DNA of 64,000 bases from a bacterium. GTDB taxonomy: Bacteria > Sysuimicrobiota > Sysuimicrobiia > Sysuimicrobiales > Kaftiobacteriaceae. Shown here piece by piece: positions 58,509 through 64,000 of the stretch. The stretch's first letter is position 1; the number at the start of each line of letters is the position of its first letter. Location of the stretch: assembly GCA_044868695.1 (NCBI GenBank), contig JBIOWP010000084.1, positions 11,659 to 75,658 on the forward strand. Reading direction: 5' to 3'. The translations under genes were made by a program, and so were the position numbers. The notes below the pieces were generated by a model. The model saw only the letters and a program-made list of their open reading frames with translations. It ran no database searches and had not been told where the DNA came from.

Positions 58509-59696
58509 TCAGCGCTTCAACTTTGCAACGGCCTTGGGAAGACGGGCCAGGCGCCGGGCAACGTCATCGAACGTTTCTTCGCGCTTGGGATAGGCGAAGC
58601 GGATGTAGCGCCTGCCCCGCGCCGGGTCATGGAAGAAACTGCTGCCGGGGACCGTCGCCACCCCGACGTCTTTGACCAGAAACTGCGTGAACGCGACGTC
58701 GTCGTCGCCGAACCCGCCGATATCGGCCATGATGTAGTATGCGCCCCGGGGCACGATCGGCTGGAATCCGGTCTCCTGCAGAATCCCCAGCAGCCGGTCC
58801 CGTTTGCGGCGGTACATCGCGGCCAGATCGGCGTAGTACTGGCGGGGAAAGTGCAGGGCCGTGACGGCGGCCTCCTGCAGCGGCGCCGCGGCGCCGACGG
58901 TGAGGAAGTCGTGCGCCTTGCGGATCGCGGTGGTGATGTCGGCGTTCTTGCAGATCGTCCACCCGACGCGCCACCCGGTCACACTGTACGTCTTGCTCGC
59001 GCTGTTGATCGTCACCGTTCGCTCCGCCATCCCCGGGAGCGACGCCAGGCTGATGTGCCGGCGGTCATCGTAGAGGAGGTGTTCGTACACTTCATCTGTC
59101 ACCGCGAGCGCGTCGTGGCGAACGCACAGGTCGGCGATCAGCTCGAGCTCGGCGCGCGTGAACACTTTCCCGGTGGGGTTGTGAGGGGTGTTGACGATGA
59201 CCGCTTTGGTCCTGGGCGAGAAGGCCCGGCGGAGGTCCTCCGGGTCGAACCGGAACTCCGGATCGTCAAGGTGCATCGCCACGTACCGCGGCGACGCCCC
59301 GGTCAGGGCGGCGTCCGGCCCGTAATTTTCGTAGAAGGGCTCGAAGATGATGACCTCGTCGCCCGGGTCGATGATGGCGAGCAGCGTGGCCATCATGGCT
59401 TCCGTCGCGCCGCAAGTGACGGTGAGGTGGCGCTCGGGATCCACCTCGACCCCGTTGTACCAGGCGAACTTTTCGGCAATCGCCTGCCGCAACCGGGCCG
59501 AGCCCCAGGTGATGGCGTACTGGTTGTGCCCCTCCCGCAGCGCCTTCGCGGCCGCGTCCAGCAGCTCTGCCGGCGGCTCGAAGTCCGGGAAGCCCTGCGC
59601 GAGGTTGACGCCGCCGTGGAGGGCGTTGAGGCGGGTCATCTCGCGGATGACCGATTCCGTAAACACGCCCACCCGGGCCGCCGTGCTGCGCTTCAC
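58509..59696 (-). CDS. class I/II PLP-dependent aminotransferase (aspartate / methionine / kynurenine aminotransferase-like)
   Basis: 395 aa. NLAQGFPDF N-terminal motif, SASKTYSVTGWRVGW PLP-Lys motif. Confidence 0.85.
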   Translation of the reverse strand: MKRSTAARVGVFTESVIREMTRLNALHGGVNLAQGFPDFEPPAELLDAAAKALREGHNQYAITWGSARLRQAIAEKFAWYNGVEVDPERHLTVTCGATEAMMATLLAIIDPGDEVIIFEPFYENYGPDAALTGASPRYVAMHLDDPEFRFDPEDLRRAFSPRTKAVIVNTPHNPTGKVFTRAELELIADLCVRHDALAVTDEVYEHLLYDDRRHISLASLPGMAERTVTINSASKTYSVTGWRVGWTICKNADITTAIRKAHDFLTVGAAAPLQEAAVTALHFPRQYYADLAAMYRRKRDRLLGILQETGFQPIVPRGAYYIMADIGGFGDDDVAFTQFLVKDVGVATVPGSSFFHDPARGRRYIRFAYPKREETFDDVARRLARLPKAVAKLKR

Positions 59697-59763: not shown

Positions 59764-60159
59764 TCACGCCTGTCCAAGGAGTTGTTTGACGAGCTCGCGG
59801 GCGTCGTAGTAGACGCGCTGCCGGCGGATCGCCCCGGCAGCGACGTCGACGAACATCGCGAATCGGTGCCGGTAGGTCGGGGCGTCTGCGGGGATCCTTC
59901 CGGGAATGCGCAGGTGCAGGGTGCGGTGGCGCCCGGTGACTGTGCCCTCCACCGCGGCCGCGTTCCCGGAAACGATGACCGCCTCGTAGGTGCTGGTCTC
60001 GTCCCAGTTCTCAAAGAATGATGCAAACGCCCGCCGGATCTTGTCCTTCCCTTCCATCCGCGGGCTGGCTGGGAACTCCAGGATGGCCCCGTCCGCGTAA
60101 AAGGTCATCAACCGGTCCAGGTCCCGGTGGTTGAGCGCGTCGAGGTAGGCCACCAGCAT
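59764..60159 (-). CDS. SnoaL-like / NTF2-like small protein (ketosteroid-isomerase fold)
   Basis: Only the C-terminal 131 aa of the 454-aa track ORF (from MLVAYLDALNHRDLDRLMTFYADGAILEF) is plausible. The rest is antisense to relA. Confidence 0.55.
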   Translation of the reverse strand: MLVAYLDALNHRDLDRLMTFYADGAILEFPASPRMEGKDKIRRAFASFFENWDETSTYEAVIVSGNAAAVEGTVTGRHRTLHLRIPGRIPADAPTYRHRFAMFVDVAAGAIRRQRVYYDARELVKQLLGQA

Positions 60160-60239
60160 CCGTTGGAGATCGCCCGGCGGCGCGGCCAGCCCGTGCGCCG
60201 ATGACTTGGGCGTCCGCGGAGTCTTGCGCGAGGCGCGGG

Positions 60240-62444
60240 TCACGAGTGCACCACGCGGTCGACGGAGTACACCTCGGGGACTTTGCCGACCTTCTGCATC
60301 ACCGCGTGCAGCTGCGCGACGTTGCGGATGTCCAGGACGACGTTGATGACCCCGACTTTGTCCTTGCGCACGCGGGCGTTGACCGAGACCACGTTGGTCT
60401 TGCTGTCCGCGATCGCCGCCAGGACGTCTTTCAACAGCCCCACCCGATCGAACGCCGCCACTTCGATTTCCACCTGGTAGGATCCTTCGGGGATAGACTC
60501 CCATTCGACCTCGATCACGCGCTCCGGATGGGTACGCAGCGAGTCCACGTTCGGGCAGTCCTGGCGATGGATCGTGACGCCTCGCCCGCGCGTGACGTAT
60601 CCGACAATGCGGTCGCCGGGCAGCGGCGTGCAGCAGCGCGAGAAGCGCGTCAGTACGTTGTCGGCGCCGCGTACGCGTACGCCTGCGGGCGATGGAGCCG
60701 GCGCGGTGGGCATGGGCGCCGCCGCGGGTGGGGCTTCGGCGGCGCGCGGTTCCCCGCGCAGGGCGGTGATGACGGACAGCAGCGAGATGTCGCCGTTGCC
60801 CAGGGCCGCGAGCAGTTCCTCTTCTGACGGCAGGTCGAATGCCGGCGCGGCGTCCCGCAGCTTGTCCGGCTTCATCAGAGCGGTGAGCGCCCCCAGCCTC
60901 CGGAGCTCCTTCTCCAGCATCTCCCGGCCCCGCTGGATGTTCTCGTCGCGCGCCTCCTTCTTGAACCACTGCCGGATCTTCGTCCGGGCGTTGTTGGTGG
61001 TGACGAACGCCAGCCAGTCCCGGCTGGGGCCCGCGCTGGTCTTGCTCGTCACGACTTCCACGATGTCGCCGGTGCGGAGACGGTACGACAGCGGCACGAG
61101 CCGCCCGCTCACCTTGGCGCCGACGCACCGGTGGCCGACGTCGGTGTGGATCCGGTACGCGAAGTCGACCGGCGTGGCACCGGACGGCAGGTCGATGACG
61201 TCGCCCTTGGGGGTGAAGACGAATACCTCGTTCTGGAAGAGATCCAGCTTGACCGACTGCACAAACGTCCGGGCGTCCTGCAGTTCCGAGTGCCAGTCCA
61301 GCAGGTGCCGCAGCCAGGACAGCTTCTGCTCGAACTCTCGTTCTGCCGGTTTGCCTTCCTTATATTTCCAGTGCGCCGCAATGCCGTGCTCGGCCTCGCG
61401 GTGCATCTGGAGGGTGCGAATCTGGATCTCCAGCGGCTCGCCTTCGTAGAGCACGGTGGTGTGGAGGGACTGGTACCCGCTGGTCTTCGGGTTCGCGATG
61501 TAGTCGTCGAACTCGCCGGGGATGGGCTTCCAGAGGGAGTGCACGACGCCCAGCGCCGCGTAGCATTCCTTTACGTCGTCCACGATGGCGCGGACACCCA
61601 GGCGATCGTAGATGCGGGCCACCGGCTGGCCGGCGTACTTGGGGCGCTGCATCTTGCGCCAGATGCTGTACACGTGCTTCGGCCGGGCGGTGATCTGCTC
61701 GCGGCCCACGCTGAGACCGGCGCGGTTCAACTCCCGGTGGAGGGTCTCGGCCACCTGCTCGAGGAACTGGGCGCGGGTCGCCTCGGCCTGCGCCAGCTGA
61801 CTCTTGATTTCCTGGAACGGCTCCGCCTGCAGGACGCCGAACGCGAGGTCCTCCAGTTCCCGCTGGATTGTCCCGATCCCCAGCCGTTCTGCCAGCGGCG
61901 CGTAGATATCGAGGGTTTCCTGGCTGGTGCGCCGCTGCTTCCACTCGGGCAGGTACTGGATGGTGCGCATGTTGTGCAGGCGGTCGGCCAGCTTGATGAG
62001 CACGATCCTAATGTCGCTGGCCATCGCCAGGAACATCTTCCGCAGGTTTTCCGCCTGCCGTTCCTCACGGCTCATCCACTCAATCTTCCCGAGCTTGGTG
62101 ACCCCGTCCACCAGGGCGGCAATCTCGAGCCCGAAGTGTTCCTGAACTTCTTTGAGCGTGACGCCGGTGTCTTCGGCGACGTCGTGCAGCAGCGCGGAGG
62201 CGACCGTCACGGGGTCCAGCCGCAGATCGACCAGGGTGGAGGCGACGGCGAGAGAGTGGTTGATATACGGCTCCCCGGAGGCGCGGGTCTGCGTCCGGTG
62301 GGCGTGTGCCGCGAAGGCATACGCCGCGCGGATGACATCCAGGTCTGCTTTGGGGAAGTGCTCGCGCATCTTCGCCAGCAGGGCCTGAATGTCGGCCGGC
62401 AGGTCCCGGAACGCGTCCGTTTGTCGAGCCTGCAGCCACTTCAT
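60240..62444 (-). CDS. relA: bifunctional (p)ppGpp synthetase/hydrolase Rel
   Basis: 734 aa. Intact HD hydrolase motif (HDVAED), synthetase domain, TGS and ACT domains. Confidence 0.95.
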   Translation of the reverse strand: MKWLQARQTDAFRDLPADIQALLAKMREHFPKADLDVIRAAYAFAAHAHRTQTRASGEPYINHSLAVASTLVDLRLDPVTVASALLHDVAEDTGVTLKEVQEHFGLEIAALVDGVTKLGKIEWMSREERQAENLRKMFLAMASDIRIVLIKLADRLHNMRTIQYLPEWKQRRTSQETLDIYAPLAERLGIGTIQRELEDLAFGVLQAEPFQEIKSQLAQAEATRAQFLEQVAETLHRELNRAGLSVGREQITARPKHVYSIWRKMQRPKYAGQPVARIYDRLGVRAIVDDVKECYAALGVVHSLWKPIPGEFDDYIANPKTSGYQSLHTTVLYEGEPLEIQIRTLQMHREAEHGIAAHWKYKEGKPAEREFEQKLSWLRHLLDWHSELQDARTFVQSVKLDLFQNEVFVFTPKGDVIDLPSGATPVDFAYRIHTDVGHRCVGAKVSGRLVPLSYRLRTGDIVEVVTSKTSAGPSRDWLAFVTTNNARTKIRQWFKKEARDENIQRGREMLEKELRRLGALTALMKPDKLRDAAPAFDLPSEEELLAALGNGDISLLSVITALRGEPRAAEAPPAAAPMPTAPAPSPAGVRVRGADNVLTRFSRCCTPLPGDRIVGYVTRGRGVTIHRQDCPNVDSLRTHPERVIEVEWESIPEGSYQVEIEVAAFDRVGLLKDVLAAIADSKTNVVSVNARVRKDKVGVINVVLDIRNVAQLHAVMQKVGKVPEVYSVDRVVHS

Positions 62445-62456
62445 CCTTGAGTCACA

Positions 62457-62556
62457 AATCTGTTGAATCTCTTGAATCTGTTGAATCTATTGGATCCAAG
62501 ATTCAATAGATCCAATAGATCCAAAAGATTCGCAGTTCTCTAGATCCAACAGATTC
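62457..62556. repeat. AT-rich tandem-heptamer inverted-repeat element (TTGAATC/TTGGATC units) between the RecQ-like stop and the relA start
   Basis: aatctgttgaatctcttgaatctgttgaatctattggatc | caa | gattcaatagatccaatagatccaaaagattc..tagatccaacagattc. About 30% GC in a roughly 70% GC window. It occupies the relA promoter/leader region. Confidence 0.55.
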
Positions 62557-64000
62557 ACGCCGTTGTTCCCGCGGTCGGTCCGGCTACCGCTTTTAGGATG
62601 TCGGTCAGCGGGCCGAAGGCCCAGCGGCTCACGTCGGCCAGGGCCTGCGCTTCGCGACGGCCTTCGGCGTACCGCAGCGACGTGGTTAAGTCCCGGCGCT
62701 CCTGCCCGGCGGGCGTAATGCGCCACCGCTCTCCATCGTACTCCCGCTGGACCGCCCCTGCCTCGGCCAAGATGTCCAGTGCGATGCCGGCGGTCCTGGG
62801 TGAGACCCCTGCGGCCTCCAGCGCCGTCCGCACCGTTTCATCCGGCCACTGCGCGGCGCCCGCCCGCTCAACTTCTTCGCGGACCACTCGATAGACCGCC
62901 GCCAGGGTCTCCCGATTCGGATGGTCCTGGTCCAGGATCACTGCCGTCGCCGCGAGATCCTCCTTCCGATATAACAACGTCACCGTGGCCTGCCGTCCAT
63001 CCAATCCGGCCGACCCGATGACCTCAAGGAAATCCCCCCGGTGCACCGGCAGCCCGGCCACGGCGGCCTGCCGGATGTCCGCGGGTGCGGCCTCGGCGGT
63101 GAATCCGTCCGACGCCACGAGCACCGAAATCTTGCCGTCCGCAAACAACTGCTCAACGACCTCCCGCACCCGGACGGGGAGTCCTCCGTGGTAATAGGCG
63201 ACCGGCCCGTGTGTCGTGTCGCGCAGCCGGGCCGCGACCGCAACGGCCTCCGCCCTGGTGCCGGCGTAGATCAGCGTCTTCTCCCCGCGGCCGACAATCG
63301 CCGCGAGCGCGGCGTCGCGGTCCACCGTGCCCCGCCGGTCGATCAGCCGGAGGTTTACGCGCAGGAAGGCATCGGTGATGACCTCACCGTGTTCCGGCTG
63401 CGGTCCCCCTCCGGAGGATGCAAACAGGCCCCACTGGGAGACCCCCGGCGCGTGCACGGCCGCCTCCAGCGGGTTATTCTCCATTGTAGGGTCGCAATCT
63501 CCGAGAAGCAAAGACGCGCGCAGTGGGGGCGTCCCGGCCCGCAAGTATTCCGCGCTAGCCAGGACGACGTCCACCGATCCGGCCTGCAGCGCCTGCAGCA
63601 GATGCTGGCGGGCGCGGAAGCGCAGGGCGCCGTGGGCGCGGGCGCAGCGCACGCCGATCTCCCGCAGGCCTGCGGCCAGCCGTTCGTACCACCGGTCCAC
63701 CTGGGACTGCAGAGGAACCGCGATGACCACCGGACCCCGGCCGGAGATCACCCAGCAGGCCGCGGCAATCCCAATGATGGCCCGCCGTCCGCGCCCCGGA
63801 CCGAAGATGCCCCGGATCGGCCGGCCATCGAGGATGGCCTTGATCGCGGCGAATTGGGGATCGCGCAGGCGGCGTCCACGATGCAGGTGGACGCGGACCC
63901 GCTCGATAACGTCCGCCGCCGGCAGCTCCCTCCAGGCGAGTCGAAGAGCCCCGCCCGGGTCAGGCTCATCGGCGGGACCATCGTGGCGCTGGATGTGGAT
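62555..64000 (-). CDS. RecQ-family helicase homologue with degenerate ATPase motifs; partial, 5' end beyond the window
   Basis: Minus-strand frame is open from 64000 to 62555. It aligns to RecQ across the whole core: FRPGQ-like LRDPQFAAIKAILDGRP; Walker A position GPGRGRRA (RecQ PTGGGKSL); DEAH position LEAAVHAPGVSQWG (RecQ VDEAHCISQWG); helicase-C block IYAGTRAEAVAVAARLRD..YYHGGL..VLVASDGF; motif VI EVIGSAGLDG (RecQ QETGRAGRDG). The track ORF 62555..63751 starts at an internal GTG. Confidence 0.7.
   Translation of the reverse strand: MHIQRHDGPADEPDPGGALRLAWRELPAADVIERVRVHLHRGRRLRDPQFAAIKAILDGRPIRGIFGPGRGRRAIIGIAAACWVISGRGPVVIAVPLQSQVDRWYERLAAGLREIGVRCARAHGALRFRARQHLLQALQAGSVDVVLASAEYLRAGTPPLRASLLLGDCDPTMENNPLEAAVHAPGVSQWGLFASSGGGPQPEHGEVITDAFLRVNLRLIDRRGTVDRDAALAAIVGRGEKTLIYAGTRAEAVAVAARLRDTTHGPVAYYHGGLPVRVREVVEQLFADGKISVLVASDGFTAEAAPADIRQAAVAGLPVHRGDFLEVIGSAGLDGRQATVTLLYRKEDLAATAVILDQDHPNRETLAAVYRVVREEVERAGAAQWPDETVRTALEAAGVSPRTAGIALDILAEAGAVQREYDGERWRITPAGQERRDLTTSLRYAEGRREAQALADVSRWAFGPLTDILKAVAGPTAGTTA

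Follow-up and report, generated by a model that had tools for sequence, protein, structure and literature searches.

The 64,000-nt stretch of contig JBIOWP010000084.1 considered here (the window) ends, on its minus strand, with an open reading frame (ORF) of 481 stop-free codons, which runs from position 64000 to 62558 and is closed by a TGA at 62555-62557; the two remaining frames over 62555-64000 are full of stops. A preliminary description of this DNA had reported an intact frame of more than 480 codons immediately upstream of relA, and both points hold, the relA/spoT start lying at 62444, 110 nt 3' of the ORF and on the same strand. Since the 5' end of the ORF is open at the window edge, position 64000, the gene is 5'-truncated in the window. 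The ORF is predicted to encode the last ~40% of the housekeeping RecJ protein of the Sysuimicrobiota/CSP1-3 lineage, where a RecQ-like module fused to the nuclease has lost its ATPase motifs.

The recJ fusion gene and its relatives

The 3' end of such a gene, when viewed alone, is easily mistaken for a broken recQ. The sole Pfam match of the window ORF is Helicase_C (8.6e-11), and the recQ models rank first among the NCBIfam matches, even though they cover only the second RecA-like lobe and miss the RecQ family cutoffs (55.7 bits for TIGR01389, with a cutoff of 640, and 54.3 bits for TIGR00614, with a cutoff of 219.8). No second, canonical recQ was found in the 64-kb window by tblastn with four true RecQs, which matched this ORF only.

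A word-indexed protein search returned about 15 close relatives, every one of them metagenomic, two of which carry a HIRAN domain and one a RecJ_OB domain N-terminal to the helicase-like part. Among species-representative genomes, a scan yielded ten close loci and one distant match. Some of the ten close loci are labeled Armatimonadetes, and one belongs to Candidatus Calidihabitans tengchongensis, placed by taxonomy in the phylum Candidatus Sysuimicrobiota (formerly CSP1-3, according to the title of PMC11604079). In all seven loci where the upstream DNA is long enough, the region corresponding to the window ORF is the C-terminal 40% of a single uninterrupted ORF of ~1180 to 1200 amino acids (aa), as exemplified by the orthologues L001 (7925-11509), L008, and L010, with 1181 to 1194 aa. 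The full-length relatives present DHH, DHHA1, RecJ_OB, and HIRAN domains, a weak DEAD match, and Helicase_C, and the orthologues pass the RecJ equivalog model TIGR00644 with 514 bits (cutoff, 397).

At the N terminus of the window ORF, the residues IHIQRHDGPADEPDP correspond in alignment to the end of HIRAN in these relatives, so that only the last ~8 to 13 residues of HIRAN fall inside the window. Furthermore, the gene order at L001 is secD-secF-recJ fusion-relA-SnoaL-aminotransferase, and the window shows the same downstream order, relA-SnoaL-aminotransferase, the upstream half of the locus lying outside it. The corresponding order in Thermincola is tgt-yajC-secD-secF-recJ fusion-relA-dtd; 3' of relA, SnoaL and the aminotransferase replace the dtd of Thermincola both in the window and in L001. 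On the basis of the architecture of the relatives, the alignment of the HIRAN end, and the shared gene order, we consider the ORF to be the 3' part of recJ and not a separate recQ-type gene. The remaining ~2.1 kb at the 5' end, with the coding sequence of the RecJ core and of most of HIRAN, would lie beyond the window edge. A 42-mer taken from the window edge was sought in metagenome_contigs as an exact match and not found, and protein-guided scans of genome_contigs and metagenome_contigs gave nothing closer to the ORF than 65 to 68% identity. Since no closer upstream contig was found, we infer the fusion in the source genome from its orthologues. The assignment to a stand-alone RecQ-family gene made in the preliminary description therefore has to be abandoned, because every full-length relative is a protein of ~1190 aa with RecJ, HIRAN, and a superfamily 2 (SF2) module. 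The features of the region are collected in Table 1.

Table 1. Features of the recJ-relA region in the window (all on the minus strand; residue numbers refer to the 481-codon ORF)
Feature	Residues	Position in window	Strand	Basis and comparison
recJ fusion gene, predicted 3' part (481 codons + TGA)	1-481	62555..64000	-	Open frame and orthologues
HIRAN end and linker, IHIQRHDGPADEP	1-13	63962..64000	-	Aligns with GVNIHVHRHDAPLDEPDP at the Pfam HIRAN end in P0002, P0014, and L001
RecA-like lobe 1	40-205	63386..63883	-	Alternating strands and helices in the AF2 model; least conserved part
Motif 0 (Q motif) relic, LRDPQ	45-49	63854..63868	-	Aligns with FRPGQ of RecQ and YRxKQ of active fusions; Gln kept
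Motif I/Walker A, degenerate, GPGRGRR	67-73	63782..63802	-	PTGSGKS in RecQ, GTGRGKS in active fusions
Motif Ia, PLQSQV				SPLIALMKDQV in RecQ, YPLRALVNDQ in active fusions; shortened, P-L and Q-V kept
Motif II/Walker B, degenerate, LLLGDCDP	164-171	63488..63511	-	MAFFT, hmmalign, AF2 strand 164-169
LEAAVHAP, helix after Walker B	177-184	63449..63472	-	AF2 helix 177-182; aligns with L..v..lG.P of RecQ upstream of motif III
Motif III relic, WGLFASS	190-196	63413..63433	-	Alignments and AF2; TAT lost; bears the coincidental "SQWG"
RecA-like lobe 2	206-345	62966..63385	-	Pfam Helicase_C; invariant columns
Motif V relic, LVASDGFTAEAAP	294-306	63083..63121	-	TSAFGEGIDI in active relatives; lost
Motif VI, degenerate, IGSAGLDGRQ	328-337	62990..63019	-	GRAGRDG; arginines replaced by Ser and Leu
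C-terminal winged helix and two helices	346-481	62558..62965	-	AF2; family-wide motif RDLxTSLRYxEGxRE
relA/spoT	734 aa	60240..62444	-	Pfam HD_4, RelA_SpoT, TGS, ACT_4; synteny marker of the housekeeping recJ locus
SnoaL-like protein and class I/II aminotransferase, downstream of relA		59764-60165 and 58509-59696	-

An exhaustive profile search over 1.84 billion representatives (50% identity clusters) placed the gene in a larger family. It returned 161 representatives below 1e-30, mostly of 1050 to 1290 aa, with the module at residues ~650 to 1200, and 73 representatives with lengths of 1000 aa or more proved to be fusions. Pfam analysis of a sample of the family gave a RecJ core followed by HIRAN, DEAD, and Helicase_C, together with a shorter subgroup without HIRAN. 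Among the 115 representatives spanning motifs I, II, and VI, these motifs are all intact (GTGRGKS, DEAHH, and GRAGRDG) in 98, all lost in 15, and partially retained in 2.

Named members with intact motifs include the proteins of Thermincola potens and T. ferriacetica (WP_013120088 and WP_052216456; 1233 aa), which are annotated only as "single-stranded-DNA-specific exonuclease RecJ." They share with the window protein and its orthologues the domain order, the length, the secDF-recJ-relA locus, the winged helix, and the SLRYxEG motif, and they are colinear with all 481 aa of the window protein. However, different from the window protein, which has lost all of them, they keep GTGRGKS, DEAHH, TAT, TSAFGEGIDI, and QxxGRAGRDG, and they do not have the deletion following its Walker B strand. 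The best NCBIfam score of the active module is obtained with recQ (194 bits), and that with recQ_fam, 189 bits, is slightly below the cutoff of 220; the recQ match covers the two lobes only, the Zn-binding/RQC region being absent even there. Because of the score below the cutoff, the two-lobe match, and the lack of Zn-binding and RQC regions, the active module is better described as RecQ-like than as a canonical RecQ.

Canonical RecJ, as in Escherichia coli, Thermus thermophilus, and Deinococcus radiodurans, resembles the RecJ core of the orthologues, where the catalytic motifs are intact, but it ends after the oligonucleotide-binding fold, whereas the fusion protein adds ~620 aa. A small extra C-terminal domain has been described in the RecJ of Deinococcus-Thermus (PMC4663267).

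Genes of this kind carry the label "RecJ" in databases, and their fragments are labeled "helicase-related protein" or "hypothetical." We found no description of a RecJ-HIRAN-helicase fusion, with or without an intact motor, in the searchable literature. The form in the window is apparently an inactivated variant of a RecJ-helicase fusion that is visible in databases and apparently uncharacterized; the claim is a modest one, as the architecture is already present, unremarked, in RefSeq.

Two proteins retrieved with the family have a different composition. P0015 (413 aa) combines an AAA_14/DUF4143 ATPase N terminus with the last ~130 residues of the family, namely, the winged-helix tail, and P0010 (526 aa) combines a PKD-domain-like N terminus with a HIRAN tail; they are either assembly chimeras or real rearrangements. 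Moreover, the metagenome-assembled genome (MAG) SMAG_U2802 (DASWFZ01) contains two copies of the fusion gene (L004 and L005) with ~91% amino acid identity, and one of its copies is 99% identical to L003 of another MAG, which suggests strain mixing in the bin and not paralogy.

Motifs and predicted fold of the helicase-like module

The state of the motifs was established with a MAFFT alignment including five true RecQ-family helicases and with an hmmalign alignment of 149 representatives from the profile search. Colinearity with RecQ, already proposed in the preliminary description, extends over both lobes in the MAFFT alignment, in the structural model, in the Foldseek comparison, and in the match of the clade profile to the bacterial RecQ 4tmu (9e-21; RecQ residues 28 to 377, both lobes). 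The FRPGQ-like motif noted there is recognizable as LRDPQ. Likewise, both alignments agree with the preliminary reading of motif I, where the Lys and the Ser of Walker A are each replaced by Arg, and of motif VI, where both arginines are replaced (GSAGLDG, aa 329 to 335). GPGRGRR forms the loop between a strand (62 to 66) and a helix (72 to 85) of the AlphaFold2 (AF2) model.

The loss of the DEAH box is also confirmed, but its location is not the one first proposed, LEAAVHAP. In both alignments and in the AF2 model, the Walker B strand corresponds to LLLGD-CDP, in place of VVDEAH in RecQ and VVDEAHH(x)6-9FR in active fusions, and a deletion of ~9 residues after this strand takes out the aromatic-rich loop and what remained of DEAH. 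The realignment with the RecQ family brings no intact box to light. SQWG, which had been listed among the RecQ-like motifs, does not stand as such, since it lies on the motif III strand, where the relatives show PLWG, PLRG, or PRWS, and its likeness to CxSQWG of RecQ is coincidental. An alignment of LEAAVHAP...SQWG with DEAHCxSQWG was considered and rejected, as it is found in the window alone, has no conserved counterpart in the relatives, and is at odds with the predicted secondary structure. Thus, the observation of a RecQ-like protein deprived of its catalytic motifs was largely real, while one motif and the identity of the gene had been misassigned.

The AF2 model of the window ORF, built from an alignment of 13 sequences, has a mean predicted local distance difference test (pLDDT) score of 83 and a predicted template modeling (pTM) score of 0.84. 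It consists of two RecA-like lobes and a winged helix with the topology H-S-H-H-S-S, followed by two terminal helices. The top matches of a Foldseek search against the PDB were RECQL5, RecQ, RECQL4, and WRN (E values of ~1e-15), with modest TM-scores of 0.3 to 0.5, behind which there could be a different orientation of the lobes. The core of bacterial RecQ (E. coli 1OYW/1OYY and Cronobacter sakazakii 4TMU) represents the best match of both lobes in sequence and fold, and it has residues of motifs 0 and Ia and of the motif IV region in common with the window protein. Different from the window module, however, bacterial RecQ has the ATPase motifs, the aromatic-rich loop, the Zn-binding subdomain, and RQC and HRDC Pfam matches, and it is a stand-alone protein, whereas the window module, predicted to be fused to RecJ, scores far below the RecQ cutoffs. 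In particular, the window protein has no Pfam match to RecQ-Ct (PF16124 or PF09382) or to HRDC, and its three Cys residues (aa 82, 119, and 169) include none after lobe 2, which leaves no four-Cys Zn-binding subdomain.

The C-terminal domain was also compared with the RQC winged helix of RecQ. A profile search of this domain against the PDB gave only weak matches to winged helix-turn-helix domains of the ArsR/MarR type (E value, 0.003), and homology with RQC is not shown by such matches. The conserved segments of lobe 2 are FLRxNLRLVDRR, TLIYxxTR, and YYHGGLPxRVREVxEQ. Two patterns, RxNLxhhDxR in lobe 2 and DLxxSxRYxEGxxE in the winged helix, are common to members with intact motifs and members without them.

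Selection on the module and its putative role

In a neighbor-joining tree of the RecJ core, the 12 full-length sequences with lost motifs (six orthologues derived from the loci, plus P0023, P0024, P0026, P0027, P0029, and P0080) are monophyletic with a bootstrap value of 99.5%, which points to a single ancestral loss of the motifs in the clade of the window. P0154/P0170, P0116, and P0130, which also lack the motifs, are placed elsewhere among the active sequences and thus represent further independent losses. Outside the clade of the window, some or all ATPase motifs are lost in P0154, P0170, P0116, P0130, P0108, and P0031. The distribution indicates a recurrent putative inactivation, with retention of the module, in lineages of the RecJ-helicase fusion. 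The RecJ motifs DxDxDG, DHH, and GGH are intact in every member with an inactivated module.

The ratios of nonsynonymous to synonymous substitutions (dN/dS) were calculated by the Nei-Gojobori method for the unsaturated pairs, distant pairs with dS above 1 being saturated and not used. For the pairs among L002, L003, and L005, the values are 0.10 to 0.12 for the whole module, 0.15 to 0.18 for lobe 1, 0.04 to 0.09 for lobe 2, 0.07 to 0.13 for the winged helix, and 0.05 to 0.13 for the RecJ core; for L006/L007, they are 0.26, 0.20, 0.45, 0.08, and 0.14, respectively. The module is therefore under purifying selection, with 0.10 to 0.26 against 0.05 to 0.14 for the RecJ core. At matched RecJ divergence, the ratio of module identity to RecJ core identity is ~1.0 in active pairs and 0.64 to 0.83 in pairs with lost motifs. 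Constraint on the inactivated module is relaxed, yet clearly present. The suggestion of a retained pseudoenzyme, as opposed to a decaying pseudogene, is in agreement with the clade-wide loss of the motifs, the intact full-length frames in seven of seven loci, and these dN/dS values, and it holds at the level of the domain.

In textbook accounts of the RecF pathway, 5'-end resection is the work of the helicase RecQ together with the nuclease RecJ; this family joins a RecQ-like helicase, RecJ, and the 3'-end-binding HIRAN in one chain. It is possible to hypothesize that the ancestor combined the roles of RecQ and RecJ of that pathway in a single-chain helicase-nuclease that resected 5' strands, in which RecQ-like 3'-5' unwinding would be coupled to 5'-3' digestion by RecJ, with HIRAN engaging the 3' end. 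The ancestral form, with every helicase motif, persists in Bacillota such as Thermincola. In the ancestor of the clade of the window, the aromatic-rich loop disappeared along with motifs I, II, III, V, and VI, while the fold, the lobe 2 surface motifs, and the winged helix were kept by purifying selection and the nuclease half remained intact in its catalytic motifs. Given the joint loss of these motifs and of the loop, the module is very probably unable to hydrolyze ATP or to translocate.

We consider it likely that the inactivated module serves RecJ as an ATP-independent domain for DNA binding or scaffolding, within a four-part fusion (RecJ, HIRAN, SF2 module, and winged helix) whose motor has been lost. 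With HIRAN, it would keep the junction or the 3' strand in place during digestion of the 5' strand by RecJ, and it may recruit partners such as SSB. HLTF and Rad5 offer a partial parallel, as HIRAN also adjoins an SF2 ATPase-like module there, but their motor is active and of the Snf2 type, whereas an inactive RecQ-like module and a 5'-3' exonuclease would be found here. The HIRAN domain of HLTF binds 3'-OH DNA ends.

Some points weigh against this interpretation. The 5' part of the gene lies outside the window, and the orthologues from which the fusion is deduced are at most 68% identical; the tree is a neighbor-joining one based on a single domain, the RecJ core; and lobe 1, whose rate of evolution is clearly higher than that of lobe 2, may be vestigial in part. 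Moreover, the Gln of motif 0 and the glycine-rich GPGRG loop persist in the Sysuimicrobiota subclade, and Lys-to-Arg Walker A variants of other ATPases can still bind nucleotide.

The last two points bear on a first alternative, which we regard as unlikely, namely, a non-hydrolyzing switch where nucleotide binding through the Q motif and the glycine-rich loop would regulate RecJ or its affinity for DNA. Gln49 of motif 0 is kept in most members of the clade, the Sysuimicrobiota subclade conserves GPG(R/K)G(R)x, and RecA-type ATPases with a Lys-to-Arg mutation in Walker A often bind ATP without hydrolyzing it. However, the loop varies in the wider clade (SPRSGGE, PEAGSRS, and PPGRGWA), the Mg-coordinating Ser/Thr, the Glu and His of DEAH, and both motif VI arginines are lost, and lobe 1 is the fastest-evolving part of the module.

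That the module has no independent function and is a tail in slow decay, kept only since its truncation would destabilize RecJ, seems improbable to us, even though, measured against RecJ, it evolves faster than the module of active relatives and inactivated versions arose several times, which suggests that the motor is dispensable. In fact, lobe 2 and the winged helix show dN/dS values of 0.04 to 0.13 in close pairs, as low as those of the RecJ core, many invariant residues of the surface type (Arg, Asp, Glu, and Trp) occur across the clade, and ~480 residues have been kept across a divergence at the level of the phylum, with no frameshift or truncation. A helicase still active through non-canonical catalysis, with R72 as a phosphate ligand and D168/D170 as an acid pair, for example, is very improbable: most Sysuimicrobiota members do present an acidic D-x-D/E pair at the end of the Walker B strand, but the aromatic-rich loop has gone together with motifs I, II, III, V, and VI, and no SF2 helicase known to us functions in the absence of the two motif VI arginines and the Walker A Lys. 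Finally, a RecQ-derived pseudo-helicase gene separate from recJ in the source genome is scarcely credible, for the window does end before any RecJ sequence, but the frame is open up to the edge and offers no plausible start, it begins with the residues of the HIRAN end, the seven full-length relatives and the 73 long representatives are all fusions, and the downstream synteny is identical. The data favor none of these alternatives.

The lineage of the window, a deep one where the body of the helicase has outlived its motor, represents a natural test of which non-unwinding functions of a helicase matter to a resection nuclease. More broadly, and only tentatively, RecJ-HIRAN-RecQ-like fusions may be a widespread single-polypeptide resection machine of Bacillota-related bacteria, whose motor would have been switched off independently at least three to four times, one of these events lying at the root of a whole lineage of phylum rank (Sysuimicrobiota and allies), with the module kept. 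If so, the RecQ-like module would have a second, ATP-independent job that can become its sole job, candidates being the recognition of junctions or ends with HIRAN, the gating of RecJ, and the binding of SSB, and the family would provide a natural separation-of-function experiment for helicase-nuclease coupling.

The recJ-relA spacer

Between the stop of the recJ fusion and the start of relA (62452-62559), the window contains an AT-rich, near-perfect hairpin of ~107 nt in GC-rich surroundings, with a minimum free energy as RNA of -51.7 kcal/mol (z = -7.7). One arm is made of 9-bp units, GATTCAA(C/G/T)A, with inverted copies on the other arm; there are seven unit pairs, where 0.08 would be expected, all of them within the spacer, and the element is unique in the window. 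The spacer of the window corresponds to no known Rfam family.

An element of the same kind occupies the recJ-relA spacer of L012 (5476-5606), with arrays of the units AATCTGTTG and CAACAGATT and a hairpin of -51.5 kcal/mol (z = -7.7); the adjacent ORF is 65% identical to the window ORF. Thus, position and unit sequence are conserved in at least two genomes, and the element could be an operator array or a structured leader for relA. In L001 (11500-11543) and L013 (5500-5543), where the spacer is short, four tandem 9-bp units, GGGTAGACC GGGTAGACC GGGAAGACC GGGGAGACT, lie directly 5' of the GTG start of relA, with the same 9-bp periodicity as in the window and L012 but a different unit sequence.

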